Shown one piece after another: positions 8,313 to 36,220 of a stretch of 64,000 nt of DNA (position 1 is its first letter; each line of letters begins with the position of its first letter). Source of the DNA: Octopus vulgaris. Its lineage: Eukaryota. Location of the stretch: NCBI GenBank assembly GCA_951406725.2, contig OX597834.1, forward strand, positions 23,994,001 to 24,058,000, given 5' to 3'. The notes beneath the pieces were generated by a model. The model did not search any database. It was not told where the DNA came from and was given only the letters and a program-made list of their open reading frames with translations. The translations under genes were made by a program, and so were the position numbers.

Positions 8313-8495
8313 GGGAGAGTTTACGAAAAAAACAAAAGACGAAGACAGGTGGTGTACAAAACAAACAGATGTATTAGTATAACGCTCAGGAATAGAAAAC
8401 GTCTTACGTTTCGAGCCTACGCTCTTCTACAGAAAGGGACACAGAAAAAACAAGGAGAGAAAAAAAATGTGTGTAGTGGCTAACGATCTATCATG
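8313..8495 (-). mobile_element. Family E: Penelope-like non-autonomous repeat with minimal hammerhead-like motif (8401-8436)
   Basis: Minus strand reads CTTT-CTGTAGA-A-GAGC-GTAG-GCTC-GAAAC-GTA-AGAC; homologous to 21415, 23113, 33830. Confidence 0.7.
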
Positions 8496-9096
8496 TATAC
8501 ACACACACACACAAATATGTATGTTAATGCAATAGAAACAATTGTTGGATTTATAAGGTGAAATCTATAATAAAGATATAATTTTCTCTGTACCAATTTT
8601 TTCACATATATACAGATGTGCGTGTGTGTAGTAACAGTAATCACATATTCACTCAGAGATAAACAATCTTCTCTACCACCACTATAGTCAATGTCCAACA
8701 TTATCACTGAGACTGTCAACAAAGACACACACACTCCATTTATTTCTGTGTCCTGATGGCTGTTCTGTCAATCTGAAACAGATATGTGTTAGCTGAATTG
8801 AATGGACCTCAAGTACTTTACCCAACAATACAACTTGCCTCCCATGCTGGGACTTAAACCTATGTACTTATGGTTGACATTCCAGTTATACAGATCATGT
8901 ATCTTTTCAACACAGTTATCAGGAGTCCTGTGAAGGTTACCTTTGTCCATGTCATTCACCCTAATTATCAACGAAGACTTATGATTAAAGGTTACTGGCT
9001 ACTATTTCTAACTGGTTGAGCAACCCCATAGTAATACAAATGACAATAATTTTCGATGTGTTTGCTGACCTCAAGTCAACCTTGATTCAACAGACC

Positions 9097-9327
9097 TATT
9101 TCTTTATTACCCACAAGGGGCTAAACACAGAGGGGACAAACAAGGACAGACATAGGTATTAAGTCGATTACATCGACCCCAGTGCGTAACTGGTACTTAA
9201 TTTATCGACCCCAAAAGGATGAAAGACAAAGTTGACCTCGGCGGAATTTGAATTCACAACGTAACGGCAGACGAAATACCACTAAGCATTTCGCCCGGCA
9301 TGCTAACGTTTCTGCTAGCTCGCTGCC
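9097..9327 (-). mobile_element. SINE family A with 20-bp TSD, inserted in family D
   Basis: CCTTGATTCAACAGACCTAT duplicated at 9080-9099 and 9326-9345. Confidence 0.9.
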
Positions 9328-10499
9328 TTGATTCAACAGACCTATCATCAAAGAAGCTCTAACCAAGACCATTCCATCTGCGTTTCAAACACAGTATCTA
9401 CATTATCCAGTGTATCTAATGTGTAATTTGCGAGACACTTAGCTGCTATTTCTTGTGGATGAAACTGTGAAGGATTGTCTTCCTCTCTGGGAGGAATTAA
9501 TCAGCTAAGTAGTACTTAACTCTATTAGAACTGAGCAGGTTTGTTTTTATTTCTTTGAAATATGGCAAAGTGGTTAGAATGTTTGACCTATGATCACACA
9601 TTCAATTTCCATGCAGGTGTCCTTGAGCAAAGCACTTCATCTCAAGCTGCTTCAGTCTATTCAAATGAAAATGAAAGGCAGCTAAGGAGGATGGGTTAGT
9701 TAACCCAGCATCCAGTCAAGTGGTTGTTTTGTATAAATCGGTTAATGCTTAAAATATTGGGATAAGCCCCAGCCCAATAAGGCTGTAGACTTTAGGAAAA
9801 GAGGGTACAGGTCACCATGACCACCACCACTGCTCTATATGATTCCTAACTGTATGCTGGAGTGCACCATTTCATCATCAGTCCAGTAAAGACATGAGAG
9901 AACTGGATAAAACTGGTGTGGGAGGTAGGTATGGTGGCCTAGTTGTTTGACTTTCTGTTTGTTATAGAACAGTTTGATCAGTGCCAACTACACAGAAACA
10001 ATAACAATATGAACCGACAAGTATGTCTTTACAATGGTCACTCACTCTGCTAAAAATAGCAGCCAAATCTCGATAAAGTCACACCATACTGGCTTAAAAG
10101 ACAAAGTATACATGAGATATTGTTAGCACTTATTTCCAAAGTGACAGGTTGGTCATCACTGGAAAGTCTTTGATCATATGTTTACTTAGATATAACGTGG
10201 TTAAACAACAATACCAATCCTCTGATAGATGGACAAAGCCCAACAGTTATTTTTTAAACAACCTGATGAAATTTTTGGAGAGGGGAGATCATGAATAGAT
10301 TTGTATTGTTGCAGGACAGTGGTCAGTGGAGGGTGGACAATTACATGCAGAGGAGATATCTAGGCTGGAGGAATTGTAGAAAATTGTGGTAAGAAAGAAG
10401 TAATTTCAGTGTAGGAATGATGAAGGTAGGGTGAGGACAATAGTGATGTAGGGGGTACAGTTCCAATGATTGAAAGAAAAGAAATTTCAAAATGTTCAC

Positions 10500-11045
10500 A
10501 GGCGTAGCTAAGTGGTAAGTTAACTTCCCAACCACATGGTTCCAGGTTCAGTCCCACTGCATGGCACTTTGGGTAAGTGTAATCTTGGGCCAACCAAAGC
10601 CCCGTGAGTGAATTTGGTAGATGGAAACTGAAAAAAGCCCGTTGTGTGTGTCCCACCTATTTCTTTACTACCCACAAGGGGGTTAACCAAGAGGGAACAA
10701 ACAAGGACAGACAAACGGAATAAATCGATTACATCGACCCCAGTGCGTAACTGGTACTTAATTTATCGACCCCGAAAGGATGAAAGGCAAAGTCGGCCTC
10801 GGCGGAATTTGAACTCAGAACGTAATGGCAGACGAAATACGGCTATGCATTTCGCCCGGCGTGCTAACGATTCTGCCAGTGTTGATATGTTTATGTCCTT
10901 GTAACTTGGTGGTTTGGCAAAAAGAGACTGATAGAATAAGAACCAGACTTAAAATAAAAATAAGGATTAGGGTTGATCCATTCAGCTAGAAGTGTCCTAG
11001 CCCAGTATGGTTGCAGACTGATGACTGAAACAAGTAAAAGATAAA
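10500..11045 (+). mobile_element. SINE family B interrupted by a family A copy (10658-10879, minus)
   Basis: B head 10500-10655, A copy, then B 3' half ending TGACTGAAACAAGTAAAAG. Confidence 0.8.
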
Positions 11046-11134
11046 AAAGTTAACTTGAAACACAGAGAACACTGTGTGTAGTTAGTAATAGGGTTAGACT
11101 TTACCACAAATACTGCAATGATTTTAATACCATC

Positions 11135-11354
11135 TGTTTCTTTATTACCCACAAGGGGCTAAACATAGAGGGGACAAACAAGGACAGACACACGGATTAA
11201 GTCGATTATATCGACCCCAGTGCATAACTGGTACTTAATTTATTGACCCCCAAAAGGATGAAAGGCAAAGTCGACCTCGGCGGAATTTGAACTCAGAACA
11301 TAGCGGCAGACGAAATACTGCTAAGCATTTCACCCAGCATGCTAACGCGCCGCC
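11135..11354 (-). mobile_element. SINE family A
   Basis: Matches the A consensus throughout. Confidence 0.9.
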
Positions 11355-11988
11355 TTCTAAAGCCATCACCAATGCTGTCACCACTACCAGGATTCTCTTT
11401 CTCCACAAGGTCAAAACTTATTTTCAGTTAAAAATAGCTTTATCAATTTAGTTTCTCATTATCATTACAAAGTTAAGATTAAAACATCCCAATTCCAGAA
11501 TTAATTATTAAAATTAGCCAACAAACATTTTCGTGGATCTATTTTCAGAAGTAGACAAGGCTGGAGTTTGAACTTTCAGCATATGAGATCAAAGAGGGAG
11601 AGGCTTCAATGCAGTTGCTAGACATGAGAAAAATAACAGCCAAATCTCCTTCAAATTACAACCTACTGTCTTAACAAGGTCACATTGGATAATCCAATCC
11701 TCTTGTAAACTTTATACAGTAGCCATAGCAGAAATACCTTAAACTCTTTAGCATTAAACCAGCTAACAACATCTTTCTACCCTCTGCTGGCCAATACCAG
11801 TCATATGTCAGGATCAAATGAATCAACTGCACATACACATATGTGTATACATATATATATATCTGTGTGTATATGTGTGTTTGTGTATGTATACATACAC
11901 ATACGTGTACCTACCTTGTTTACCTTAATATAAAGAATGCCTATGAAGATTAAAACAATAAATGTAAATATATATATATGTTTGTATG

Positions 11989-12031
<43 letters not shown>

Positions 12032-12637
12032 ATATATATATATATATATACATACACACACACATCTAAACATGCATGCACACGCACATACAGACTTATG
12101 CAAACTTAATATAATCACACTGCATGCACACATACATATACATCTTAGGTATGTGCTACAGTAGAGGTCTACTATTTAAGTCAACTGATTTGGGTGTTCT
12201 TAGCCACACATGCTATTTGTGAAAATAACAAAGATTATTTCTATATCATTGTTGATACTGTTTCTGTTCAAGTGTAAGCTTATGTTTTTTATCAGTGTCC
12301 AAATTTTGAGATAAAATAACTTTTTAAGAGTTAGTTTAACCACCAAGAGTAAAACATTGCCACAAACCAGTGTAAACAATCAACACATCTTAAAGTGTTT
12401 TTGTCCCCATTCTATATGCAAAGCAAGAATAATTTTGCCGTTAATTTCACTCAATGTAAAGCCTTTTGGCATTCAAAATGGTCTGTGTTGTTTAACATGG
12501 TCATATTTAATATACTGAATTCAAAAAATTTGAGGAATTATGTTCATCAAACATCAAAATATTTGAATTTTTGAATAATTGATTTCCTGTATTTAATTAG
12601 CATTCTTTATAATAAATTGAACATCTTTTTTGGCACT

Positions 12638-13046
12638 TGTGCTGGTGGCACATGAAAAAACATTGAGTGGCACATGAAAAAACATTGAGTGAGGTCGTTG
12701 CCAGTGCCGCTGGACTGGCTCCTGTGTAGGTGGCACATAAAGAGCACCATTTGAGCGTGGCTGTTGCCAGTACTGCTGGACTGTCTCCTGTGCAGGTGGC
12801 ACATAAAAAGCACCATTTGAGCGTGGCCGTTGCTAGTACCGCCTGACTAGCCCTCGTGCTGGTGGCATGTAAAAGCACCCACTACACTCTCGGAGTGGTT
12901 GGTGTTAGGGAGGGCATCCAGCTGTAGAAACTCTGCCAAATCAGATTGAAGTCTGGTGCAGCCATGTGGTTCGGAAGAGCTCAGTCAAATCGTCCAACCC
13001 ATGCTAGCATGGAAAGCGGATGTTAAATGATGATGATGATGATGAT
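12638..13046 (+). mobile_element. SINE family C with 5' tandem 66-bp units
   Basis: GGTGGCA motif at 12729, 12795, 12861 (66-bp period), then the C body and (ATG)n tail. Confidence 0.85.
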
Positions 13047-13099
13047 TTGAGTGTTCATGTTATATTCAACCATGTTTTGTCTTCTTTTTCAGGAACAGT

Positions 13100-13850
13100 T
13101 TGAATATTGGTAAACAGTCAACACCATTGGAGAACAAGAAGATTATGAGAAAGGATTATATAGTTGAGAAAAAGTTAGCTGACAAAGAGGACTGTATTTT
13201 GCATGTCAGAGTTCACCCTCACATCTTTGAACAGAGCTTTAACCCTTTAGTGTTCACATTATTCTGCCAAAATTAATGCTTTTTCATCCACATTGTTTTG
13301 AATTAATCATGCATTATTTCGTAGCTAGGAGATTTTGATGAGGTAGCTGTTAATTTTTTAAAAGATATTGTAGGGTTGGTGTGAGAGACCAGATCTGGCC
13401 AGTTTGAACATAAAACAGGCAGAATACTTTTGGCCGGATATGGCCGGTTTAAATGCTAAAGGGTTAAGCTCAATTCAGATGGCTATGTGAAGCTGCAGTC
13501 AATCCCTGGCTGGAGAGGGTTGCTGCAGGAAAGCCATATGTACAGCAGCAGGATTCAGCTCTTTGTCATACCTTCATAAAGAGTTGGAAGTGGTTTTCAG
13601 AGAATTTCTATGACTTCACTAGCCCCAATTTCTGGTTTTCTAATTCCCAGGATTGTAATCCAATGGATTAATATGTGCGGTGTGTGGTTGAAAGACACCA
13701 TTCCCTCTGCCCGGAACACCAAGGTTAAGTGGTAGCCAAGATCAAGATCCATACCATTTCCCAGGGAAATGGTATGGAACACATGTACCAGGTTCCAGGG
13801 CCATCTTGAGGCCATGGTGAAAGCTCAGGGTGGCTACTTTGAGTAAACCA
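13100..13850 (+). pseudogene. maT/DD37D-type transposase remnant
   Basis: LNSDGYVKL..PWLERVAAGKPYVQQQDSALCH..ENFYDFTSPNFW..NSQDCNPMD..RFQGHLEAMVKAQGGYFE*; many lesions; left boundary approximate. Confidence 0.7.
13243..13463 (+). mobile_element. piggyBac-type MITE (221 bp)
   Basis: TTAA|CCCTTTAG...CTAAAGGG|TTAA: TTAA TSD and CCC/GGG termini. Confidence 0.85.
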
Positions 13851-14241
13851 TTATCTCCCAGGCATAGTCAAGTTTATATTCTTTTATGTTTTGAAATACT
13901 TTTATTTTTTGATGGGATATTGTGTTTTCTCTTCATTTCATGCAAACTATCAAATTTAGCCCAAGCACCCTGTATGTGCACATGCATGTATATGCAAATG
14001 TTTACCTTCTGTACAGAGCTATAAGCACTGAAGTAAGTTTGTTGTCATTTCCCTGTCAACAAGTCATCCAGTATCTCTGTACTTTCAAAGATGTATAGAA
14101 TAAAACCTCCCTTACTTGAAACACAGGTAAGGGTTAGCAACAGGAAAAGCATCCAGTGCTTAAAAACAATAGCTTGATAACATGTATACATCCAACACAT
14201 GTTAGAATGGAAAAATGGGTGTAAAACAAATAAACTGATAT

Positions 14242-14640
14242 ATGGCTGTGTGATTAAGAAGTCACTTCACAATTATATAGTTCCAAGTTCAGTCCCACTG
14301 CATGGCATGTTCGGCGGCAAGCATATTCTTCTATAGCCTAAAGTTAACCAAAGCCTTGTGTGTGGATTTGGTAGACGTGCGTGTTTATGGCCCCTTGTCT
14401 TGACATTGCACAAGAGATGTAAATGAGCGTCACAATCATACAAGCAGTGTCGCTCATTGTGAATCTTCCATAACAACATGTCTGAACATGTCCTGAAAAA
14501 CTACTTCACATGGAAACAGGTGAGGGCTAGCAACATAAAGAGCATCTGGCTGCAGAATATCTGACTCAATCAATTCTTCTGGCCCATGGGAAGATGAAAA
14601 AGTAAACATTAGAATGATGATGGTCATGATGATGAAGATG
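14242..14640 (+). mobile_element. Old SINE with family B head and C-like tail
   Basis: TGGCTGTGTG..GTTCAGTCCCACTGCATGGCA head; tail GAAACAGGTGAGGG..AGAGCATC..ATGATG. Confidence 0.6.
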
Positions 14641-14847
14641 ATATTCATATGAAAGAGGAAATTTTATAATTTTTGTAGGAAACCACTCATCAGTGGAGCT
14701 GCTGTTTCCAAGTCCCTGTCATTTTGTTTTTCATTTCAATAAAATATAGAAACTATATCTATATTGAGTCCTTTATCTGTTGGTGATGTACAGGTTTTTT
14801 TTAAAAGCTTCCTATAAATACACAGAGTGCATATATGTATATGTATG

Positions 14848-14915
<68 letters not shown>

Positions 14916-16621
14916 GAGATAAAAAAGAGAGAGAAGAGGGAGATGTGCGCACACACACACACACACATAACCAAGATGTATAGTGCTGATTCTACTAAAA
15001 ATGGTATCAAGTCCACTCTATGAAGTGGCTGGTGTTGGAAAGTACATAGAGCTGTGAAAACTGTGCCAAAACCACGGCATCAAAGCAAGACATGATCCTC
15101 CAACACAAGTTCTGCCAAAGTGTCCAACCCTTGCTAGCACAGAAAGCAGGTGTAAAACGTCGGTGACAATCTCACACACACACACACACATACACACACA
15201 TATACACCTGCTAAATACATTTGTATATAGACATACACAGACATATATATACACATATATTCATGTATTATTCTATAAACCTACCTGCTCACAACATCAA
15301 CAAACACTGCAGCAGCAGACAGTAAAATGTGCACTAGATAAATGTCACAAGCCGCAGCAGTAGCAGCTATATCAATAACGAAAAATATTTGCTGCAGCGA
15401 CAACAACAACAATTGCATCAATCCACAATAAATAACGAACAACATCTGATGCAGCAATTTCACGCCACCACCACCACCCCTGCCGCTACCAACAACAAAT
15501 ACAAGCATATAGTCTTGACATGGTTGCTTGATCTGCAAGAAACAACAGCCAAATCTCCTTTCATATCACACCAGCTCACTTGTCTTAGAAGACATCAACT
15601 CTCCCAGTACACAGAACAAAAAAAAAAGAGGGGGTGGTCACGGTTGAAATGTCTTTTATTGTAGACCTGTTGAATCAGGGATGGCCAAGGGTTAAACAAC
15701 AACAGCAACTGGTTCTGTAGGAATTAGCAACAACAACAACAACAATGGTCGATACAATTATTTCACAAGATCAGCAAACTGCTGCAACTTAACATTGTTG
15801 TCGTCAAGGCAACTGGACAAAATGGAGATTTCTTTTCTTGAAGGAGAGAGGTGGAGGAGGGAGTTGCCCTTTAGATTTAAAAAAAAACAAAAAAACTCTC
15901 TTTCATTCATTTGCTCCCTTTCCTTTTTATTTTTGTCTCTATCTCTGTCTTCTTTTGTCCCTTTACCCCCTTTCTCTCACACACACACACCATCTATACT
16001 CAGTGAACTCCTAGTTAAAATGAAAGACAAGGATGGGGATCAGTGGTGGTGGTGGGGGGGGGGGTCGCAGTGCCACAACTGAAGCCGGAGGTAAATTAAT
16101 GTCAGGAGTGTCCAGGTGTCTTCACACACTTCACTGCAACAACAACCATAGTAGGCTGCAGATGACGCACCTACAACAGCAACAACAACAACGACATGAA
16201 GCTTCTATACGCGGTAGCTAACCCTGCTTGAACTAGCAACTAAATCTCCTTCAAATTACACACTAGTGCCTTAAAGGGAAGGACACACAAAATAATATTG
16301 TTATGACTAATGTCATTGATTATAGGTCAATTGGATTCAGGCTGACCTAAAGTTAAACAGAAACGGTTTAAATGGCTACAGCAGTACTAAGAAAATCAAA
16401 GAGAGCCTCTACTTGGTTACTTAATCTGCTAGGAATAGCAATCAAATCACCTTCAAATCACACCTTATTGTTTCAAACGAAGCACACTATTTCTGGAGAA
16501 AAACATGATCATACTTGGAATATTTTAGATCAGAGATAGGTTTGTTTGATCAAAGTTGGCTAGGGGCTGAAACAATAGCAACAACGCCAATGACATTTGG
16601 GAACCTATAATTGTACAAAAA

Positions 16622-16852
16622 AGGTGGCGAGCTGGCAGAAGCGTTAACGCGCTGGGCGAAATGCATAGCCGTATTTCATCTGTCGTTACGTTCTGAGTTC
16701 AAATTCCGCCGAGGTCGACTTTGCCTTTCATCCTTTCGGGGTCGGTAAATTAAGTACCAGTTACGCACTGGGGTTGATGTAATCAACTTAATCCCTTTGT
16801 CTGTCCTTGTTTGTCCCCTCTATGTTTAGCCCCTTATGGGCAGTAAAGAAAT
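16622..16852 (+). mobile_element. SINE family A, full length, 18-bp TSD
   Basis: TATAATTGTACAAAAAAG flanks both ends; A-box TGGCAGAAGCGTTA and B-box GAGTTCAAATTCC intact. Confidence 0.9.
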
Positions 16853-17072
16853 ATATAATTGTACAAAAAAGTAACCAGTTCTCCCTGAGACACATTTTGA
16901 TCTCAAAAGCAAAGAAATAAAAAGTAAAAAACACTATGGGTGTATATTGTCTGGAAAAGGCAGGACAGGATAAGAAAAATGTTTGTCATCATTTGGCGGG
17001 GGGGGGGGGCAGAGTAATAGTGAAATGGGGGAGAATAAAATTATGAAGTGAACTAATTTGATTCAACAGACC

Positions 17073-17487
17073 TATTTCTTTACTACCCACAAGGGGCTAA
17101 ACACAGAGAGGACAAACAAGGACAGACAGACGGATTAAGTCGATTATATCGACCCCAGTGCGTAACTGGTACTTATTTAATTGACCCCGAAAGGATGAAA
17201 GGCAAAGTCAACATTGATGGAGTTTGAACTCAGAACGTAAAGACAGACAAAATACCTATTTCTTTACTACCCACAAGGGGCTAAACACAGAGAGGACAAA
17301 CAAGGACAGACAGACGGATTAAGTCGATTATATCGACCCCAGTGCGTAACTGGTACTTCTTTAATCGACCCCGAAAGGATGAAAGGCAAAGTTGACCTTG
17401 GCAGAATTTGAACTCAGAACGTAACGGTAGATGAAATACTGCTAAGCATTTCGCCTAGCGTGCTAAAGGTTCTGCCAGCTCACCACC
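17073..17487 (-). mobile_element. SINE family A head-to-tail dimer
   Basis: Two units joined at AAATACC|TATTTC (~17256). Confidence 0.9.
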
Positions 17488-17628
17488 TTAATTTATTGTT
17501 AACTAAAGTCAAGCCAGACAAATAAAGACAGATATTTCCACTTGTCTCAGTCACTGGACTGTAGCCATTCTTGGACACCACCTTGAAGAATTCTTAGTCA
17601 AACAAATCAACCCCAGTACTTCTTTTAA

Positions 17629-17827
17629 CCCAGCCCAAATATTCTGTATGTTTTATATTCAAACTGGCAGTATCTGACCTCTCACACCTAACCTACATTG
17701 ACATTCTAAAAATAAACAATCACATCATTGAAACCTCAAAGCTGTAAGATAATGCATGGCTAATTCAAACCAATTTGAGTAATAAAATATTACATTTAAC
17801 AGAGTAATCTGAACACTAAATAAAGGG
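17629..17827 (-). mobile_element. piggyBac-type MITE (same family as 13243), inside a family B remnant
   Basis: TTAA|CCC..AAAGGG|TTAA; interior is the reverse complement of 13243-13463 with a small deletion. Confidence 0.7.
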
Positions 17828-18520
17828 TTAAGCCAAGTAGTTATTTTATATATATGGAGGAATTATACCAAATATTTACTTCAAAAAATAAATTAGTTAA
17901 TACTAGACAAGAAAGAAGTTTTAATTGCTTACACAAACAATGTTTTCTTTTTAAAAAATTTAAATAATAGAATGCATTGATTTATATTATTGCAATAATT
18001 TTTTTTTTCTACAAATGTAACTATAATAACTATAATAATTAAGAAGCATTTGAAGAATATAAGAACAGAATTCAATTTATAAGATTATATATAATATAAC
18101 CTAAAAACACACTTTAAAGCAATAATAATAAGTTATAAGAATTTAAAATACAACTGACTACTTCTTTTAATAACCACATGGTTCTTACTGCCTAGTAATT
18201 ATCCACTTCTACTATTAATAACCTTCACAAAAATTCAAATAATATCACTTCTGAAATCCATCAAAAAGCCATGTGACTATAAAGTATGTAGAATCAATAA
18301 AAAAAATTGTATTCTATAAATAACCATTCTCCAACTAGCCAAGAAAATCTGCCAACTTCAACAAACACTGCTGCTACTACTGCCAAATGTTACCCAAAAA
18401 TTCAGTTGAGAAAAGCAGCTCATTGAAGAATGCCATTACTTACTAATAACTACTATCAAGCCTAATTCAAACTAATAGCAGAGGAAAATTCCTCTTCAAA
18501 TAATGTCATACTTATATAAC

Positions 18521-18607
18521 CTGAAGAGATCATACAAATAATGCATAAATCGCTGCATATAAATATGCAACAATATGCAGTTAATGCAATCGAAACACGT
18601 GTCAGAC
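18521..18607 (+). ncRNA. Type I hammerhead ribozyme motif (Penelope-type); helix I degenerate
   Basis: CTGAAGA-GAT..long helix II..ATC-GAAAC-ACGT-GTC; palindromic helix III ACACGTGT. Confidence 0.65.
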
Positions 18608-18838
18608 AATTATTATGAATAAATTAACTGGAAATAAACATAGAGTCTGAAAGTTCAAATTCTTCATTCTCCTTATAATCAATATTGTACTTCACAAGCT
18701 AAGTAGCCAAGAAATAAATTGTAAGATTGGGTGGGAGCTAAAGGAAGTCTACCAAAAAAATGCACCATCTGAAGGAACCAGCCTTGGTATTTTACTAAGA
18801 GAAATTTGGTATCAGCCTGGATATCATATCCCTCCTCT

Positions 18839-18873
<35 letters not shown>

Positions 18874-18876
18874 TAA

Positions 18877-18915
<39 letters not shown>

Positions 18916-19033
18916 TAGATTCAGATGAATATGGTACCTAAGTTGAGGCACCAGAATTTAGTACAGTATTATCCATACAATTTCAAAATAAAGTGAATAA
19001 AATCAAAATAAGTAACAAGGATATCCAGAGGTA

Positions 19034-19121
19034 ATGCAGTACGATTGTTTCAAGCAACTCCATTTAATTGAACAATGCAATCATTATATCAATTTAAAAG
19101 CAGAGCAATTCTCAGCTGCAT
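19034..19121 (-). ncRNA. Decayed type I hammerhead motif
   Basis: Minus: ATGCAG-CTGA_GA..GAAAC-AATC-GTA-CTGCAT. Helix I is a perfect 6 bp but one core base is missing; downstream TTACC..CTTGTT.CTTATTTTGA matches the flank of the 50532 motif. Confidence 0.55.
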
Positions 19122-21161: not shown

Positions 21162-21328
21162 TAGGCGCAGGAGTGGCTGTGTGGTAAGTAGCTTGCTTAC
21201 CAACCACATGGTTCCGGGTTCATTCCCACTGTGTGGCACATTGGGCATGTGTCTTCTACTATAGCCTCAGGCCGACCAAAGCCTTGTGAGTGGATATGGT
21301 AGATGGAAACTGAAAGAAGCCCGTCGTA

Positions 21329-21377: not shown

Positions 21378-21417
<40 letters not shown>

Positions 21418-21772
21418 TGTCCGAAGTCAGGACGCCATGATAGATCGTTAGCTCCTGCATGCATTCTTTTCTGTGTATCTTTCTGTCGAAGAGCGTAGGC
21501 TCGAAACGTAAAAGACTTTTCTATTCCTGAGCACTATACTAACACATTTGTTTGTTTGTACTCCACCTGCCTTCGTCTTTTGTTTATTTTTGTAAACTTT
21601 CCTGTTATATATGTATGTGCATGTGTGTGTGTATATGTTTGTGTGTCTGTGTTTGTACCCCCCTAACATCGCTTGACAACCAATGGTGGTATGTTTACGT
21701 CCCCGTAACTTAGCGGTTCGGCAAAAGAGACCGATAGAATAAGTACTAAGCTTCCAAAGAATAAGTCCTGGG
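21162..21772 (+). mobile_element. SINE family B with family E nested in its central (TA)n tract
   Basis: TAGGCGCAGGAGTGGCTGTGTGG head, (TA)n, E copy, then B 3' half truncated at AATAAGTCCTGGG. Confidence 0.85.
21415..21606 (+). mobile_element. Family E with best-preserved minimal hammerhead-like motif (21478-21515)
   Basis: TCTTT-CTGTCGA-A-GAGC-GTAG-GCTC-GAAAC-GTA-AAAGA; helices I and II pair perfectly. Confidence 0.75.
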
Positions 21773-23112: not shown

Positions 23113-23305
23113 AGTCAGACGCCATGATAGATCATTAGCTACTACACACATTTTTTTCTCTCCTTGTTTTTTCTGTGTACCTTTCTGTAGAAGAGCATAG
23201 GCTCGAAACATGAAAGACTTTTTCTATTCCTGAGCACTATACTACATCTGTTTGTTTTGTACACCACCTGTCTTCGTCTTTTGTTTTTTTTCGTAAACTT
23301 TCCCT
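23113..23305 (+). mobile_element. Family E with hammerhead-like motif (23181-23217)
   Basis: CTTT-CTGTAGA-A-GAGC-ATAG-GCTC-GAAAC-ATG-AAAG (cleavage triplet decayed). Confidence 0.7.
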
Positions 23306-23324
23306 ACTTCATTATTAAGGTCAT

Positions 23325-24915: not shown

Positions 24916-26971
24916 GTAGAACGCACACGTATTTATACAACATAACCACTTGCAACCTGTTACTGTAATGATATTACTTTGGAAATGGCTTGACTATATA
25001 TAGGAAATTTAGCAGATATACAAATAGCTATATTTTGCTATTTATGAGAACAGAAATGTTAGGATGAGTTTAGCTTGTTTTTACAGGTGAATTCTGCTTA
25101 AGTGAGGTTAAATGTCAAGTAGCGATAAAATACATCCCTAAGGACAGCTATTGTTCTGGCTGTTAACCTGTGAGGTCTTATTGTTTTTAACTATGAACCA
25201 TAGCATTTGCTAGTTTATGGGAAAATTGAACATTTGATTTTGATTCTAGTGCTAGCTGGTTTGCAAACAAAAATTTATTCCACGTGTTTTGTTACAGCTT
25301 CTGTAATAAATCCAATACACTCTGGAAAGTGGTTGGTATTAAGGAGAGCATCCAGCTGTAGAAACCATGCCAAAACAGACAACTGAAGCCAGGTGCAGCT
25401 CTCCAACTTGCTGGTGAAGATGTATATGTGTGTAAACCTGCTCTACAAATGCATGGATGTGCATGTCTGTTGCATGTGAGTGTATCTGCTTTGTGCGTGG
25501 GCATGTGCATGTGTTTTTTTATACCATTTATTTTTTAGTTTGTTTACTTCCTCTTCTTACTGAGGAAATCAATCAAATTTTGTCCAGTTTTGGCCTTCCA
25601 TATATTGTATATATAAAGAGGAAATTTTGTGTGCATGTTTAGAGTAGAATTGTTTGTTGGTGTAACCATGATGTTCCAATACTCTAATGAGGTCGCTAGT
25701 TTTATTTGCATTAATTTGTGAATATATAATTGCATTTTATAATGCTGAGCAATAATATTGATGCAAACATGTACACCAATAATTTCATCCATCTGAAACT
25801 AATACTACATGAAGAATATTATAAAACGACCATAACCCTATGGAAGTCACATGGTTAAATAAATATATATTCACCTCTCATACCTCCTGACTTTATGGTT
25901 TCGTAAATACATCAATGTAAGCACATGACTTTGTGTGTGTGTGAGTGAGTGAGTGAGTGAGTGAGTGAGTGAGTGAGTGTGTGTGTGTGTGTGTGTGTGT
26001 TTTGTGTGATGTTATATATTCATATTTAACAAGGATTTTGGCAATTATTCACCTTAGCTGCATAATTTATAGGTGTTACAGTAAACTAACAACAGAAACT
26101 TATCACACTTCAGACGCCATTCTTGGTCTCTTGTCTGCAGCTTGTGGAGTTGAATAAATAGAATTAATTATTAACTAATACTGTTGTACCTCGTTTAGCA
26201 GCACTAATTGAATCTGGGAAAGAATTAAGTGAAAAACGCACTGAACACAATGTTTTATTCCTGACAGAAACAAACCAGGAGGAGCAGAGATATAAAATAG
26301 TTAACAGTGCATGGCTTACAGTACCTCTGACAATCTGGGTTCTAATCCTGCTGAGGATATCATTTGCTCCTTTCAGAGTCAATTCAAAATATAAATATCA
26401 GTAATAAATGTTGATTCACTTAACTCTTCCTTCTTCTACTCCTCATCCCGTGTACCAATGTAGGAAACATAATTTTTGTAGGGTTGGGGGTAGTCAGAAT
26501 TGCAGTGGTGGATTTAGGGAATTTGTTCTGACATCTCCCACTGTTTTAGTTAAGACACAGAATGATCCCTTACAAGGTACATATAAGGTACAGCCTGTAA
26601 AAACAATGAAATCCTTTAATGATAGAGGACCCCTGAAGAGTAGAGGAATGGAGTAGTTGGTCAGACTGGAAATAGACAAAGGATTTTGATGCTCTGTCAT
26701 CAAACTACAGGCGATGATTATGATACAAGTGTTGGCAGAATCATTAAAACAGGAGACAAAATACTTTGTGGCTTTTAGTGACAACTCCTTATGTTCAAAT
26801 CCTGTTGAAATCAACTTTCCTTTCATCTTTCCAGGGTCAATAAAATAAAGTACCAGTGGGATCAATATAATTGATTCATCCCCTTTCCTCTGAATTTCAG
26901 ATATTATATTGATATGATTATTGAAACTGATGGTCATGGCGATACATATATGTGTGTGCGTGAGAAAGATA

Positions 26972-27072
26972 ATGTAGTAGTAGTAGTAGTAGTAGTGGTT
27001 GTAGTAGTAGTAGTAGTAGTAGTAGTAATGGTGATGGTAGTAGTAGTAGTAGTAGTAGTGGTGATGGTAGTG

Positions 27073-27107
<35 letters not shown>

Positions 27108-27150
27108 GGTGGTGGTGGTGGTGGTGGTGGTGGTGGTAGTGGTAGTAGTA
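26972..27150. repeat. (GTA)n/(GTG)n microsatellite
   Basis: Direct reading; explains the poly-V and poly-T ORFs. Confidence 0.95.
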
Positions 27151-27496
27151 ATGTTGGCCTCTAACCTCCAGTCCATTATAAAAGACACAGACATAGACTA
27201 GAATGAAGATACTGCAGCAATGAGAGAGAAGATGGAAGATTTCCAGCCATTGAAATGTGTTGACTTGGATGGTGTTGCTCTTGTTTAGCCCTAGGTCAGT
27301 CCTGATTCAATAGACCTCTTAATAAAACTTGTTCTGACTATTTCCATCTCTCAGTGAACTGCAACAGTTACTGAGGAGGAGGCAAAAAAAGAAACTATAA
27401 TTTCAAGCAGTTAAGTTTGACATCACAAAATGTTTGCTTTATTTAAGGGGCTTAATCCAATGCACCTTCTATGTTGTTTTTTTTTTCCTTCCTAAA

Positions 27497-28573
27497 TTAG
27501 GCACAAGGCCAGCAATATTAGTTGACTACACCGACCTTAGTACTTTACTGGTATTTCATTGACACTGAAAGGATCAGAAGCAAAGTTGACCCCAGCAGAA
27601 CTTGAACTCAAAATATGAAGAACCACAAAAACTACAAGACATTTTCCTAATGCTGAAACCATTTTGTCAATCCACTGCCTTAGAACAGCAACAACTATTT
27701 CTGATTCAGGCACAAGGTCATTCAGTTGGTATCATCAACCCCAATACTTAGCAAGTACATTATTTTATCAATTCCAAAATAATAAAGATGAAGATGACCT
27801 TGGCAGGTTTTGAACTTGGAACATAAATGGCCAGAAGAAATGCCTATTTCTTTACTACCACAAGGGGCTAAACACAGAGAGGACAAACAAGGACAGACAA
27901 ACAGGTTAAGTTGATTATATCGACCTCAGTGCGTAACTGGTACTTATTTAATCGACCCCGAAAGGATGAAAGGCAAAGTCGACCTCGGCGGAATTTGAAC
28001 TCAGAATGTAGCGGCAGAAGAAATACTGCTAAGCATTTCGCCCGGCGTGCTAACGTTTCTGCCAGCTCGCCGCCCAGAAGAAATGCCATTAAGCATTTCT
28101 CCTGATGCTTGAATAACTCTGTCAATCCACCACCCCTAATAATGATTTCAAATTTTGGCACAAGGCCAGCAATTCCGAGGGAAAGGGGCTAGTTGATTAC
28201 ATTGACCCCGGTCCTTGACAAGAACACATTTTACTGATACTGAAAGGATGAAAGGCAAAGTCAACCTCAACAGAATTTGAACTCAGAACATAACAACAGA
28301 CGAAATGCTTACTAAGCGTTTTGCCTTGCATACTAACGATTCTGCTAGATTGCTGTGTAACTGGTTTCAAATTTTGGCACAAGGCCAGCAATTTCAGGAG
28401 AGGGGAGTAAGTCAATTACACTGACCACTGTGTTTAACTGGTATTTGTTTTCTTGACCCTGAAAGGATGAAAGACCTAGCCAACCTCAGTGGCATATTAA
28501 CCTTAGAATGTAAAGACAGACGAAAGGCTGTTAAGCATTTTGACATGCTAATGGTTCTGTCAGCACACTGCCT
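27497..28573 (-). mobile_element. Cluster of about four old family A SINEs plus a young A copy (27845-28073, TSD CCAGAAGAAATGCC)
   Basis: Repeated GGCACAAGG..GAAAGGATGAAAG..TTTGAACTCAG blocks in one orientation. Confidence 0.8.
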
Positions 28574-28578
28574 TAATT

Positions 28579-29141
28579 ACAACCATATCCTACCGCTCTA
28601 TGTCACGCTGGTGAGATCCATATTGGAGTACAGGATTCAAGCCTCTTCTCCTTATCTCCTCAAAGACATACATCAGCTTGAAAGAATCCAGAAGCTGGCT
28701 ACCCGCATGGTTCTTGGTCTCAAGCATTTGTCTTATGAAGAAGGGCTGAAGACGTTCGACCTTTATTCTCTAGAAAAACGCCGCCGCCGTGGTGACCTCA
28801 TTCTTGCTCACAACATCATAAGCGGAAAGTGTAACCTCTCGAAAGAGCTGTTCTTCACTCCTGCTCCAGAGCGTAGGCTGCAAGGTCACTCCGAAAAGCT
28901 CTATCTGCAACGATTTCATCTCAATCGAAGGAGAGGGGCTTTCTCCGTCTGGGTTGCGGATCCGTGGAATAAGCTGCCGGACGAGATAGTGAAGATGCCG
29001 ACGACCGCTCGGTTCAAAGTCTCTCTTGACCAGAGATGGCCTGAACTCTTTGCATGAACACCCCTGTACATAACTCCATGTCCCCCTACATAGCCTTGCT
29101 TTTTGCTTTTTGAGCCAAAAAATTAAATTAACTTAACTTAT
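28579..29141 (+). pseudogene. CR1-clade LINE 3' fragment (ORF2 C-terminus, 3' UTR, (TAACT)-like tail)
   Basis: LYVTLVRSILEY..SPYLLKDI..LERIQKLATRMV.GL..LSYEE.L..LYSLEKRR.RGDLI..FS..V...WNKLP; 5'-truncated. Confidence 0.9.
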
Positions 29142-30324
29142 AATATTAATCCTTTATTGGCAACAACAGTCTCTACAAATAAAAGGGTTACAAAATATGT
29201 AGGAATACAAATTTAAAAAATGGAGGGAATGAAGGTTATGTATTAAAAACAGGTTAAATCTTAGGACACAAAATTTCTCAGATGTAATCTTGGGTCTACA
29301 AACAGTCACTTATATATGTTGGCCCACTTGGTTATGATGGACTTAGTGAAGATGTTCAGTAACAGAGGAAGTGGATGGTTGATTATATTCACCCCTTATA
29401 TGTCTGATACTTTATTGCATCAACCCAGAAAAGCTGAAAGAGTAAAGTTGATGCTGGTAAGATTTGAACCAAGACAGTAAAAACAAAAATGTAACTAAAT
29501 ACCACGAGGCATTTTGTCAAATGTTTTGAAATGAAATATAAACCCTGCCTGAATTTGAAACCTTGAAACATAGAAAGCCATGCTCTCTACTAACTGTGCC
29601 AATAATAAAGTGATTGGCTGGTGAAATAATAAAGGTGAAGGTGTGGGGGAAGATATATAAAGGATGTACTTCCATACCAGAGTGATGGTGGTGGGGATGG
29701 TTATGGTGGTGGTAGTGGGTGGTGATGATTGTAATGGTAGTGGTGATGAGGAGATTAATGCTGAAAATGATGATGGCGGTTATTATAGATATGATGATGA
29801 TGATGATGATGATGATATTAATGGTGATGACAGTGATGGTGGTGGTGGTAATCACATTAATGATGATAACAATGGTGGTGGTGGTGGTGGTGGTAGTGGT
29901 GTGGGTAGAATGAGCATTGGATTAAGTACAGTAACTAAGAAGCTTTAATCCCACTAATCCTCTGTCTGATGCCCTGTTTTACAAGAATTGAAGCTGAAAT
30001 AAAAGTTCTTTCTATTTATATAATTCTCAGTTATTTAAAAACATAAAAAGAAACCTGAAAATGTTTTAATATTGTAAACAAGTCAATCAATTTGATGTTT
30101 TACATAGAATCCCCAATTTCAGATATTAGTCAGACACACTAACTTAACATTGAAACGCTCTCTTTTTTTCCATTTCCTTCACAGTGATTAAAACAGCAAG
30201 ATTAATTAAACACATTAGGCCATAGCACAAGCCAATTAGTGAATGGAAATTAATTTATATATGCCAGCATGAACAGACAGACATAAAACTAAGATGTGAT
30301 GATACACACATACACACACATATC

Positions 30325-30655
30325 TTTTATCTTTTACTTGTTTCAGTCATTAGACTGCAGCCCTTCTAGGACCATTGCCTTGAAAAATTTTAGTTGAATG
30401 TATCAATCCCAGTATTCATTTTTAAAGTACTTGTACTTAGACTATCAGTCTCTTTTGCCAAACCACTGAGTTACAGGGACAAACACACACACGATGGGCT
30501 TCTTTCACTTTCTGTTGAACAAATCCACTCACAAGGTTTTGGTTGGCTTGAAGCTATAGAAGACACTTGCCCAAGATACCATGCAGTGGGATGGGATTGA
30601 AGCCAAAATCATGTGGTTGGGTAGCAAACTTCTTGCCACACAGCCATACCTGCAC
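30325..30655 (-). mobile_element. Old SINE family B
   Basis: TTTTACTTGTTTCAGTCA tail and AGAAGACACTTGCCCAAG CORE-like segment. Confidence 0.75.
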
Positions 30656-30674
30656 CGATATATACATGTGTGTG

Positions 30675-30704
<30 letters not shown>

Positions 30705-30705
<1 letters not shown>

Positions 30706-30969
30706 AGAAGTCCGGTGTGAGGGATGTCATCGCAGAGTATACACACAGCAAGTTTAGATAGGCTGGACACGTCGCCCGACTCACCGATAATCGGTGCACC
30801 CGCGTAGTTGCCGAGTGGTACCTGCACGAGCGGAAACGACCACCCGGAAGGCCTCCACGATTGGGATCACGTGGATGAGAAAGGCACGATCCAGAGAGGA
30901 GTGGACAGCGTGCTGTGACCAGCGGTGTCAAATGGATGCCTGACAGACTGGTCGGTCAAGGTGATCAAG

Positions 30970-30974
<5 letters not shown>
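30705..30974 (+). pseudogene. RTE-clade LINE 3' fragment (second family)
   Basis: KKSGVRDVI..KFR*AGHVARLTDNRCTRVVAEWY..KRPPGRPP; ends in the duplicated tail CAAGGTGATCAAGGTGAT. Confidence 0.8.
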
Positions 30975-31027
<53 letters not shown>

Positions 31028-31424
31028 TATAATATATGCCAGTTTTTTAAGAAGTACATTGTATCCTATAAGCTGTAAAGAGGCAACTAAAAGGGTTGGC
31101 AACAAAACTGAGGTCTAGCAATAAAAATATTGCCTCAAAAGTCCTGTCCAACTTGTGCCAGCATGAAAAAGCAGACACAGAAATGATATTGATAATACAG
31201 TGTTTCAGTCTCAAAAATTATGCAAATCATCATCACTGTTATAATATCCTCATATCCTTCTTGCATGAGTCAGACAGAGTTTACTGGGAAGTATTTGAGG
31301 CAGATATTGCCAACCCTCACCTGTTTCCAAGTAATCTACTACATATGTGGAAAATTGGTGTGTGTTTGTTTGTGGTGTTGTTACCTAACTCCTCCTACAT
31401 CGTTTTATTGATTTTGATGAAACT

Positions 31425-31840
31425 TGACACATGAGTAGAACTCATGTCTGGAAACCTCATGACATACTTAGATTATTGAAAAAAATCAATAATACGGCCC
31501 CTGGAAGGGACCTTTATATGTACTTCATATAACTAATTCTGTTTTTGAACACCCAAGGGAAATAACCCATAGCATCTGCAAAATATTTTTTTAAAACAGT
31601 TAACGGAAGTAATCCATTTCATTGTTTATGTTCGATTGCTTTGAATACTGATGTCTAATTTCTAATTTTTGCAGAAAATATCACTTTATTTGACATGTGA
31701 GTAGAACTCATGTCTGGAAACCTCGTGACATACTTAAGAAAAATCAATAATAGGGCTCCTCCAATGGATCCTTCTATCTGCTACACATTACTAATATTTT
31801 ATTTAAACAACCCAAGGGAAATAACCCATACCACCTGCAG
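31425..31840. repeat. Diverged tandem duplication (~265-bp period)
   Basis: TGAGTAGAACTCATGTCTGGAAACCTC.TGACATACTTA and CCCAAGGGAAATAACCCATA each occur twice. Confidence 0.8.
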
Positions 31841-33089
31841 TTTTTAGCAAAGCGATCAATATTTAATTCTCATGATCAGGTGACCTAATTCTGCATTTCA
31901 CTACTCACAGTTTTAAACTGCTAAACCTTATTATTGCACTTCTTTAATTTGGATCAAACATTAAAGACTTCATTCATACATTTTTATACATACATACTTT
32001 TTTGGATGCCCATTATTCCAATAATACTGCATTTTTACAGTTACACTTTTTCCATGACAGTAAATAAATTATTTATTCCACAATGTATTTGTAGTGGCTT
32101 CATGCAGGCATGGAGTGGATTTGATCCTCAATTGCCAAATTTCACTTAACACATACACACACACACATGTGTTGATGTTACACTATAAAGTTATATACCA
32201 TGTTAAAGCTCATGAAATTTTCTTTACTTTGATATACATCTTAATTCACAATTTACAACTTGAATATATAAAAAATGCCACACACATGTCTATGTATGAA
32301 TGTATATATGTATTGATATATATATATTTATAATTTACATATATGGGAGTGATTGTGTGAGAATCTGCACACAATGTTGGAGGTAGGTAGAGATATATAC
32401 ATGTGTGTATATACACACATGCTTCACTATATGTATGTGCAAGTCAAAATGGGTCGGTTTACTTAATTATCTGTGTATGTATGTATATACACCCACATAT
32501 GCGAGAGGGTACTATACACACACCCTCTTGCATAAGTTGATTGGTGTATGCATATCTATATATATGCATATACACATATGTATGTATGCATACACAGGCT
32601 TGCGTGTGGGAGTATATGTGTGAGCCTGTGTGTGTATCTGACCACTGAATACTAAAGGTCAACTAAACAAATTCACATGTGTAGCCAACCATGAAGAACA
32701 GATCAGCGATACAACCAAATGAAATATCAATCCCATTCAAATGCCAGCCAGTACCAAAATATCCATCTACTACCATTCATAGCAGTCTGCCTAATGCACT
32801 CTGGCAGCATACACCATGAGTCTATCAGCTACTACAAATTCAAACCACAACAGACAGAGGGAATAGCCTTGAAGTTGACGATTTTAAACTAATGGCCAAC
32901 ACCACTTGTATATTGTGAGAGGAAACACAACTAGATCTCATTTGCAAACTAACAGTTGCATAATCAAATACCTGTATTCTTGGAGAACTAAGGTGTGTTG
33001 AAACAATTGCAGTGATTAAAACATAACCTTTATATCATTATCATCATCATCATCTATACACACACACACAAACACAAAATATATACATA

Positions 33090-33393
33090 CTAGTAGTATC
33101 GCCCGGCGTTGCTTGGGTTTGTAAGGGAAATAACTATATAAACATTTTTAGAGAGTTACTTCCCTTATATAAACCGAGCGAAAAATGCATTAAAAATGCG
33201 GAAAAATTATGGTAATTTTTTAAAAAATCGTAGTCTCATCGTAGACGCGCGCTAATACCCAGAAGGGCTTGATATGAATTACAACTATAAGATACCCACT
33301 TTTGGTTAAGCTGCACTGCAAAATGTGGGAGTAGTTAGGAATCTAAATCGGAGTAAACAGACTCTCACACAACTTCAATTTTATATATAAAGA
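33090..33393 (-). mobile_element. Non-autonomous Helitron
   Basis: Minus: A|TCTTTATATATAAAA ... CCC-AAGCAACGCC-GGG hairpin, CTAG|T. Confidence 0.75.
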
Positions 33394-33787
33394 TATACAT
33401 TACATACGTATCATTATCAATTATTGTCCAATGTTGATTCTCCATGCTAGCATGGGTTGGACAGTGTGACAAGATACAGAACGCTGCGGGGCTGCACTGA
33501 ACCCCAGTATTAAGTTTGACATGGTTTCAGATGCCCTACATAATGCCAACCACCTTTCAGCATATTCATGGTGCTTGTTTCATGCCATCAGCGCTAATGA
33601 GGTTGCCAAGTAAGCTACAAGACAGGGAAGAACAGGAAAGAGAAAAGCCCCATGATTAAGTGGTGCGAGGGGAGTATTAGGAAAGGAGAGGTAGCTTTCT
33701 GCCAGGTAGTGAGAGTATGATAGGACAAGAACAGTGTCTTGTTATAGGGGGGATACATGGAGATACACATGTGTGTGTGTGTGTGTG

Positions 33788-33829
<42 letters not shown>

Positions 33830-33830
<1 letters not shown>

Positions 33831-34016
33831 TGATTCGCTAGCTTCTGCATGCATTTTTTCTCTCCTTATTTCTCTCCGTGTTTCTTTCTGTTGAAAAGCG
33901 TAGGCTCGAAACGTAAAAGACTTGTTTTATTTATATTCCTGAGCGCCATACTAATACAATTGTTTGTTTGTATTCCACCTGCCTTCGTCTTTTGTTTATT
34001 TTCATAAAGCTTCCCG

Positions 34017-34020
<4 letters not shown>
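33830..34020 (+). mobile_element. Family E with hammerhead-like motif (33883-33920)
   Basis: TCTTT-CTGTTGA-A-AAGC-GTAG-GCTC-GAAAC-GTA-AAAGA. Confidence 0.7.
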
Positions 34021-34047
<27 letters not shown>

Positions 34048-34051
<4 letters not shown>

Positions 34052-34250
34052 ATCCAAACATGAAAGCACAAAAAAATACCAACAACGCGAGGACATGGAA
34101 CAAATATAGTATTATTGGACGCTCAGGAAAGGAAAGAAGGAGGGTTTAACATTTCAAGCGGAGCTCTTCGTCGGAAACATAGGAGTAGGAAAGATCCAGA
34201 GAAGGGAAGACAGAAGAAAAAAAATCGCCAAAGGTACACACGCAGTCACA
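34048..34250 (-). mobile_element. Family E relative with hammerhead-like motif (34144-34178)
   Basis: Minus: GTTT-CCGACGA-A-GAGC-TCC-GCTT-GAAAT-GTT-AAAC, followed by TTCCTGAGCG..AATACTAT as in family E. Confidence 0.65.
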
Positions 34251-35146
34251 CTGCATATATGTGTGCATGCATGAGTATGTGTACACACGTTTGTATATTA
34301 AATTTACAAATGTAATACACATGTATATATATATATGGATTTTAAATACACACACACACATACATATACATGGAATTTACATATGTATATGTGTGTGTGC
34401 ACATACATACACACTTTCCGAAGTTTCTCATTTCATTTGCTGAAAATGTTTTAGATTTTTATTTGAAAAATTCATTTAAAGTTATTGAAGTTCTTTCATC
34501 AATTAAACTAAATTTCTTCAGTTTCCTGTTGCTATAGCAACAGGTTTTCTCATTTAAATTGAGTGAAAATTTCCACAGCAATTTCAATATGAAACCTGAC
34601 CTATATTTGCTGAGAAATTCCAGGAGATTATCTCAGAAATGTACAATTTCTCACTTTGGAGATAAGTCGGCTAAGAAACCATTTCAAACGAAGGTCATTT
34701 CTTGATTTTTAACCCTAAGTCAACTCAAACTAAATAGCGCTATGATCAAAGCTGTTTCAGCTGTGACCCTATCTTTTTAGCAGAAAGATGACATAATCCA
34801 TACCCATAATCTATGTGGGATGTGAGTGACATTCAGCTGCTATTTCCAGTAAGTCAAGTGGCTAAATGACAAAAATGGCAGAGAGGCAGATAACATTTAT
34901 AATGTCTTTATATGTTTCTATATAAATTTATACAGGGATACCATCAAATAAATATCTTACACTATTTAGTTGAACCACTTTAATAGTTCAAACCTCACTG
35001 AAGCCTGTTGTGCTTTTCTTATTCAGGAACCATAAAAATAAGAACCAGTCAAATATTGGAATCAATTTTCAAATTACCTGCAATTATTCCCACAAACTTT
35101 GTGGGGATTGTTTGTGTGGTATCATTTTGCTACAGCCATCATGTAA

Positions 35147-35368
35147 GACTTTAAGTGTTCAGATTACTCTGTTAAATATAATACTTTTTTCACTCAAATT
35201 GTTTTGAATTAATTATGCATTATCTTACAGCTTTGAAGTTTCAATGGTGTGATAGTTTATTCTTAGAATGTCAATGTAGGTTAGGTGTGAGGGGCTGGAT
35301 ATGGCCAGTTTGAATGTAAAACATGTAGAATATTTAGGCCGGATATGGCCGGCTTAAACACTAAAGGG
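35147..35368 (+). mobile_element. Old piggyBac-type MITE (13243 family)
   Basis: Colinear with 13243-13463; right end CTAAAGGG|TTAA intact, left end decayed. Confidence 0.7.
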
Positions 35369-35503
35369 TTAAACAGTCTTCAAAACTATGAAACAAAATC
35401 AAAACCATAATCTACTATACACACATTATATTGTTAACAAGACAACTGACCCCTAAACTATGGAAGAATATTGAAAGCAGTCTCTTATACACACCTCATA
35501 TAT

Positions 35504-35733
35504 ATTTCTTTACTGCCCACAAGGGGCTAAACATAGAGGGGACAAACAAGGACAGACAAAGGGATTAAGTCGATGACATCGACCTCAGTGCGAAGCTGGT
35601 ACTTTATTTATCGACTCTGAAAGGATGAAAGGCAAAGTCGACCTTGGCAGAATTTGAACTCAGAATGTATCGACAGACGAAATACCGCTAAGCATTTCGC
35701 CAGGCGCGCTAACGTTTCTGCCAGCTCGCCGCC
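35504..35733 (-). mobile_element. SINE family A, 20-bp TSD
   Basis: TCTCTTATACACACCTCATA on both sides. Confidence 0.9.
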
Positions 35734-35959
35734 ATATTCTCTTATACACACCTCATAGATTATTCACAGGCCAATGCACCTCAAATCTATGGAAGGAAAT
35801 TGAAGACATGATTACAGACACAGCATTTTTATTATTCATTAGACAATTAACTGATAAACTATGGAACAAAATCAGAGATATAATCTATTAAACATGACAC
35901 TATAATATATTAGATACAAGACAATAGCTTGATAAATATTTTTAATTAATTGTGGTATC

Positions 35960-36007
<48 letters not shown>

Positions 36008-36074
36008 ATATATAAATGTAATGTGTGTGTGTATATATATATATAATTAGCATCATCATTTGTCATCATCTTGA

Positions 36075-36220
36075 ACAGTTAATCCCTACACATTTCTTTC
36101 TCTCTGTTTTTTTTCCTCTTAATCCTTTATGTTGAAGAGAGTAGGCTTGAAATGTCAAAGACTTTTCCATTCTTCCCAAGTGTTTAGTACCAAATCTTCC
36201 CTCTCTATCAATACACCAGA
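36075..36220 (+). mobile_element. Old family E copy
   Basis: CTTT-ATGTTGA-A-GAGA-GTAG-GCTT-GAAAT-GTC-AAAG; decayed motif. Confidence 0.55.

Follow-up and report, generated by a model that had tools for sequence, protein, structure and literature searches.

The question raised by a 64-kb stretch of the Octopus vulgaris genome (assembly GCA_951406725.2, contig OX597834.1, forward-strand positions 23,994,001 to 24,058,000; hereafter the window, to whose positions all coordinates refer) is what role a hammerhead ribozyme motif can have in a retroelement when a base of its catalytic core has been exchanged. Five related repeats in the window carry a minimal type I hammerhead in which position 6 of the core, canonically CUGANGA, is a U. 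A preliminary description of this DNA took them for copies of a retrozyme-like, non-autonomous element of ~190 bp. Searches of the 2.8-Gb, 227-contig genome assembly lead to a different identity: on the genomic sequence, these repeats (family E; the labels B, A, C and E0-E8 are family or subfamily names coined in the present analysis) are the pseudo-long terminal repeat (pLTR) of an autonomous, recently active Penelope-like element (PLE), in which U appears to have replaced A6 early and to have persisted.

A hammerhead motif with U at position 6

The best-preserved hammerhead of the window (21478-21515, + strand) consists of helix I UCUUU/AAAGA, the core CUGUCGA from C3 at 21483 to A9 (U6 at 21486), an inserted A, helix II GAGC-GUAG-GCUC, and GAAAC-GU followed by H17 at 21510, the base after which cleavage is predicted. 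The consensus published for PLE minimal hammerheads reads NNN CUGANGAH G..C GAAAN palindrome NU H NNN (Cervera and De la Pena 2014, PMC4209133, in the portion available). The octopus motif agrees with it at every position except 6, holding the extra base after A9, the G10.1-C11.1 pair, the GAAA, the loop-less palindromic 15.2-16.2 and the NUH site, so that by its core it falls outside the strict definition while the architecture is retained. The same portion of that paper describes further features also found in family E: a U-rich 5' flank, a short helix I, location in the pLTR and mostly dispersed truncated copies. The sequence therefore bears out the proposal that this is a minimal type I hammerhead of the Penelope kind, its helix III reduced to the palindrome ACGU without a loop; the additional A that separates A9 from helix II had gone unmentioned. 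A scan of the whole window with Rfam gave 94 matches at E ≤ 1, none of them to a hammerhead.

A 25-nt core pattern, CTNNNGAAGAGCGTAGGCTCGAAAC, has 18,909 exact matches genome-wide and 0 for its reversed control, which shows that the motif is not due to chance. The canonical core is not that of this family, as A6 appears in only 226 of these matches; U6 was found in 95 of the first 100 listed, and N7 is any of the four bases. The genome consensus at position 6, which the preliminary description had named among the checks that could refute it, is U and not A. Across 11 hand-picked motifs from four families, eight of nine helix pairs change on both sides (0 of 500 shuffles), a signal contributed mostly by a single family-A row. 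Assembled RNA contigs of four runs list no change at position 6, a blank that is uninformative because N7, known to be variable, is blank too; one assembled contig (organism B) matches the young motif with 0 differences. The alternative register UUGAAGA, with a U3 core, was rejected: helix I and a neighbouring helix II are both lost in it, and it does not work where N7 is A, C or G. A search for U6 in other helix II families gave 591 matches, of which the first 100 listed are nearly all point mutants of family E.

The autonomous element behind the short copies

Copies of family E all stop at a common 3' end, beyond which lies a TA tract, but differ in their 5' ends, which vary continuously, so that the supposed 190-bp unit dissolves into a fixed end and variable truncation. 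Upstream, the longer copies continue unbroken across a spacer rich in pyrimidines, first into a GIY-YIG frame and beyond it into a reverse transcriptase (RT) frame. A protein search returned at least 150 close matches to the element, many with identical scores and with open frames of more than 1,000 codons, and 20 loci were taken from these for their long open reading frames (ORFs). In 11 of the 20 the motif is present twice, 4.44-4.58 kb apart, in partial tandems that form pLTRs; full-length young copies with intact frames bear the same motif in both pLTRs, and all 31 motifs at the 20 loci read CUGUUGA. The 14 young ORFs whose start was located differ by a median of 0.35%, and six of them run without a stop over 960 codons.

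This single ORF encodes an RT (RVT_1 above cutoff, with YIDD) followed by GIY-YIG, recognizable from a C-terminal IIYC..YIG, although the Pfam GIY-YIG match is weak (E 0.0065, below cutoff). Its translation shows a CX4CxxC linker (CSRPRCRTC), a CCHH endonuclease and a DKG motif, the protein matches being nameless or "uncharacterized", and the hammerhead sits 733-792 nt upstream of its ATG. The available text on Neptune and Nematis PLEs (Craig et al. 2021, PMC8557442) likewise reports a C-terminal GIY-YIG with cysteines between GIY and YIG, a CX2-5CxxC linker, DKG, partial tandems, 5' truncation and (TA)n targeting; by these motifs the element would fall in the Neptune or Nematis clade. At one locus (L098, with the young motif at 1623-1662) the strand that carries the ORF, at 2423-5317, has a pyrimidine content of 66%, including 40% C; the frame terminates in a low-complexity tail with a stop that varies between copies.

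The element thus has an RT-endonuclease ORF, partial tandems with 5' truncation and a pLTR hammerhead motif, as expected of an endonuclease-positive PLE. The partner Penelope RT/GIY-YIG ORF whose search had been advised exists and shares the ends of family E. It is this continuity, together with the paired motifs and the near-identical intact ORFs, that identifies the element as autonomous, the window holding truncated tails only. Non-LTR retrozymes (Cervera 2020; Li et al. 2026, bioRxiv 2026.07.22.740005, in the parts available) have a type I hammerhead and PLE pLTR ancestry in common with family E. They are, however, non-coding tandem repeats without an ORF, whereas family E belongs to an element that codes for protein and only looks like a short repeat where its ends are truncated, and the non-autonomous identity initially proposed has to be abandoned.

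The five repeats of the window were found near the places given for them, all with U6 and with the cores previously read, but the helices said to be common to all are complete only in the copy at 21415-21615 (+), an E5-type tail between TA tracts that includes the hammerhead described above. The copy at 8297-8502 (-), of subfamily E4, has its core CUGUAGA at 8432-8426 (U6 8429, H17 8405) and a 2-nt deletion in the 3' strand of helix I. The E4-type copy at 23113-23306 (+), with core CUGUAGA at 23185 and U6 at 23188, shows CpG-type decay of the motif (loop AUAG, GAAAC-AU-G). The copy at 33828-34026 (+), of E7 type and 89% identical to the young element, has core CUGUUGA at 33888 (U6 33891) and an A-C mismatch at pair 10.1, and its 3' end corresponds to the proposed internal TA priming site. 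The old copy at 36063-36184 (+), decayed throughout, has core AUGUUGA at 36129 (U6 36132) and groups with the oldest subfamily. No ORF remnant was found by tblastn in the window beside these five short copies. Their reported proximity to (TA)n holds for the family, a TA tract lying within 60 nt of the anchor in 50 of 60 copies ascertained by their flanks.

Age and constraint of U6

When copies were picked by flank motifs alone, U6 was present in all 25 that could be scored (30 loci, five truncated below the motif), and in the oldest group, picked in the same way, 23 scorable copies out of 30 loci gave 17 U, three A and three C. Together with the 31 young-locus motifs and the rarity of A6 among the exact matches, these counts uphold the claim that A6U was already present in the amplifying masters. 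In a tree of 154 copies the subfamilies branch off in ladder-like order, most of the copies selected for A6 lie dispersed amid U6 copies, and U6 is the majority base in all eight defined subfamilies. The tree had hinted at an ancestral all-A6 subfamily inside E, an idea that the composition of the oldest flank-picked group did not bear out. The three A6 copies of that sample (L033, L115 and L116) all lie within the first 4.1 Mb of contig C1; the rest of it has U6 or C6.

Over the eight subfamily majorities, 34 of 36 motif columns are constant, whereas 43 of 103 flank columns are variable (Fisher p 2e-5); for these majorities E1b (two copies) was dropped, 41 copies stayed unassigned and A6-selected copies were excluded. 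The flanks of E1 and E8 are 66% identical, and where old U6 copies are flanked by remains of the ORF, these match the young protein at ~62-74% identity over the stretches that align well. The sole motif columns that change across subfamilies are N7 (five changes) and H17 (three, A/U only). G17 is found in 125 scattered family-E copies, with no amplified G17 subfamily in E. Three old U6 copies (L264, L265 and L271) have a different, UUCG-like loop II, which suggests that U6 could be older than the GUAG loop.

Sister families with other cores

Canonical CUGANGA...CGAAACGU motifs have 16,394 matches genome-wide (control 140) and include family B, with flanks homologous to those of E and the same helix II, and the distant family A. 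Because these relatives with a canonical core are found in the same genome, A6 is likely the ancestral state. Family B has 11,700 exact matches; among the first 100 listed, 76 have U4C and none U6. It is an autonomous active sister element, whose protein is 61-70% identical and whose copies are 99-100% identical in 6.2-kb tandems; in the amplified form, with its unit of 6.2 kb, the 3' region is CA-rich and very long (loci L234-L263 and L304-L337). U4C was amplified in family B independently of A6U in family E. In the youngest family-B motif, helix I has a U-U mismatch and G5-G8 folds onto C15.2-C17. Three older copies (L147, L243 and L245) share G17, normally uncleavable, and a 6-nt upstream deletion, and may represent an amplified family-B subfamily.

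The window also holds a family-B 3' end, absent from the preliminary description, at 34047-34259 (-), with core CCGACGA (U4C) and C3 at 34174. It lies tail to tail with the family-E copy at 33828, the two sharing the (TA)n target tract at 34018-34047. One further locus (L128) is a chimera in which a family-B 5' flank is joined inside the core to a family-E motif with A6, a structure that points to recombination, or to a switch of template, within the motif that the two families share.

Predicted fold of the U6 core and ends of the insertions

In a 39-nt nearest-neighbour model, U6 adds the helix U4-G16.2/G5-C15.2/U6-A15.1. Positions 6 and 15.1 pair with a probability of 0.38-0.98 in nine of ten natural U6 variants, the young form reaching 0.98, whereas the value is 0.00 for all five natural A6 variants. 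This inner helix is predicted to fill the core and to hide three of the four palindrome bases from which, in PLE hammerheads, the helix III of a dimer is thought to form (PMC4209133, part of text).

Natural core variants are known from elsewhere. According to the available text of Perreault et al. (2011, PMC3088659), A6C (phage Bcep176) and U4C (viroid) affect these same core positions and leave low residual activity, below 0.1 per min for A6C, and the viroid change is the one found in family B. Those variants are single, rare sequences in full hammerheads, while in family E, which belongs to an active element, U6 dominates ~19,000 exact copies. When a different hammerhead was screened by saturation mutagenesis, every single mutant of CUGA was low in activity and only a C3-G8 swap was a rescue (PMC9901934).

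Ten young loci were examined for their insertion ends, and both ends could be read in eight. The downstream copy ends in CCCGT followed by (TA)n, whereas the upstream copy reads CCCGT-TATATATTATGCG into the 5' leader. An internal UAUAUA marks the 3' end of the insertion, which lies 103 nt downstream of the predicted cleavage site (97 nt at one locus), so that every long cDNA must cross an intact hammerhead site. None of 18 aligned long young copies (20 taken, two without alignment) starts at the predicted cleavage site, and in 12 of them the upstream motif is crossed as well. Among 36 distinct truncation junctions, tallied by hand from the first 100 of 723 listed, four fall at +1 and nine at +1 to +3, with 18 farther downstream and nine upstream; no clear spike was seen at +1, a nearby T run having a similar density. 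Since no long copy starts at the site and no clear spike is present, a dominant cleaved linear template seems unlikely.

A damped ribozyme or a retired fold

The reading favoured here, with a probability of about 0.5, is that this pLTR hammerhead, carried by a PLE that is autonomous and has amplified recently, is damped and probably protein-gated, so that most template RNA would be left uncut. The endonuclease would nick (TA)n, and the nicked strand would prime on the internal UAUAUA, much as the green anole's Poseidon element, PAc, starts internally (Frangieh et al. 2024, PMC11167929). The RT would usually drop off early, giving tails of 100-250 bp such as those of the window. Rapid cleavage would sever the RT start from the body of the element, and slowing variants would be tolerated or favoured; it is proposed that the hammerhead is kept slow because reverse transcription must cross the site. 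A6U is predicted to weaken the core and to add the inner helix over the ACGU palindrome needed for dimers, and the remaining catalytic signature may be retained because rare cleavage or ligation probably matters once the protein of the element refolds the RNA. PAc, in the text available, offers a close likeness, with an RT start downstream of its hammerhead, an AT-rich target, uncut RNA as template and a hammerhead that is silent without protein, the last two being features that family E may share. It differs in that its hammerhead overlaps the start codon and has the usual C3 and G8, while that of family E lies far upstream of the ATG and has U6.

Several observations weigh against this reading. 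The saturation screen implies that A6U may simply be dead, and one U6 variant (C17) has a pairing probability of only 0.15. The conservation test is biased: an exact match to the motif was the way in which many loci were found, flank motifs served to define the groups, and E2 comprises three copies; moreover, loop II (GUAG), dispensable for minimal catalysis, is equally invariant in E1-E8. N7 and H17 are unpaired in the closed-rod fold too, and their freedom therefore cannot separate catalysis from a structural or binding role. Of the two signatures put forward as checks, excess conservation was observed, but covariation is absent inside family E. Family B, with its U4C, its helix I mismatch and its older G17 copies, resembles decay. 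Two of 30 old copies begin within 2 nt of the predicted site, and these, with the nine junctions at +1 to +3, leave room for a minor cleaved fraction. Ligated circles would give intact junctions too, and the read-through counts come from family E alone.

The main rival, a serious possibility, is that A6U killed cleavage and that the 36 nt are kept as a protein-binding site, an RT-positioning hairpin or pLTR promoter DNA. This agrees with the low activity of CUGA mutants, with the invariant loop II, with the absence of long copies starting at the site and with family B, which keeps helix II and GAAACGU in spite of its changes. Naiads proliferate without a hammerhead (bioRxiv 2021.04.23.441226), and the available text on the anole Poseidon reports that cleavage, which takes place only with the protein, is not needed for insertion in vitro, catalytic mutants still inserting (PMC11167929). 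A retired fold accounts less well for the fact that the sole variable columns of E are those a hammerhead tolerates (a chance of 1 in 630 if all were equal, an after-the-fact figure) and for the lack of an amplified G17 subfamily in E.

It is unlikely that U6, in a dimer or bound to protein, equals A6, the RNA being cut to unit length, circularised and copied by rolling circle. Insertions of more than one unit are common (the same 12 of 18; three successive motifs at L105/L106), all other core bases are retained and a circle model has been proposed for PLEs (PMC4209133, part of text). Nevertheless, tandem source arrays account for long insertions without circles, position 6 mutants of other hammerheads are slow, the palindrome is predicted to be occluded by U6, and the cleaved ends show no clear pile-up. 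Very improbable, and refuted for the family as a whole, is the stand-alone ~190-bp element: the five window copies are all short and without an ORF remnant, but none of the loci read showed ~190-bp repeats in tandem, 5' ends vary continuously into copies that join the endonuclease frame, and full-length elements have this very sequence as their pLTR.

Other repeats in the window

Family A, represented in the window at 43560-43716 (+) and elsewhere by L175-L203, has a canonical minimal hammerhead with helix II GGCUG/CAGCC. In front of it there is often an (AAT)n tract together with a head resembling a tRNA; ARAGORN gave weak tRNAs in two of four loci at a relaxed score. The whole could be a tRNA-headed short interspersed nuclear element (SINE) that ends in a hammerhead, or else a pair of repeats that happen to be neighbours. 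An abundant interspersed repeat of ~235 bp, probably a SINE, has copies 86-93% identical at 9094-9329, 10655-10879, 16621-16857, 17248-17493, 27843-28074, 35498-35736, 39166-39405, 40591-40820, 55955-56196 and 59784-60030.

Significance for Penelope-like elements

PLE minimal hammerheads, cleavage as dimers, TA targeting and internal priming are already known, and what differs here is the U6 core. The core variant described in the available text of PMC4209133 is U3-A8, as opposed to a U6 fixed in masters, and of three matches to "CUGU" in the text examined of its supplement alignment, none is at core positions. An A6U hammerhead core was not found in the literature searched, whose coverage ends short of Lunse et al. 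2017, Arkhipova et al. 2017 and the figures of PMC4209133; matches to "A6U" itself were, by their listing, a twister survey and an aptamer selection.

What PLEs gain from their hammerheads is far from obvious, as these are slow in vitro, Naiads lack them, and in the one system that has been reconstituted insertion proceeds without them. The octopus genome has two active sister elements, both with intact proteins and together with tens of thousands of dated copies, whose cores are non-canonical in different ways, and it also has canonical relatives. The wild-type motif can thus be set directly against its revertant and the sister motifs, in the presence or absence of the protein that belongs to it. 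It may tentatively be proposed that successful Penelope lineages evolve self-locked hammerheads, in which A6U or U4C together with an inner helix would form a switch opened by the RT protein of the element. If so, A6U would add a functional core to those known for hammerheads, and families E and B would together form a natural experiment on the purpose of the PLE ribozyme. Descriptor searches that demand CUGANGA miss ~99% of the exact copies of family E, and for this reason counts of PLE hammerheads may be underestimates, and elements recorded as having no hammerhead ribozyme may sometimes have been wrongly classified.

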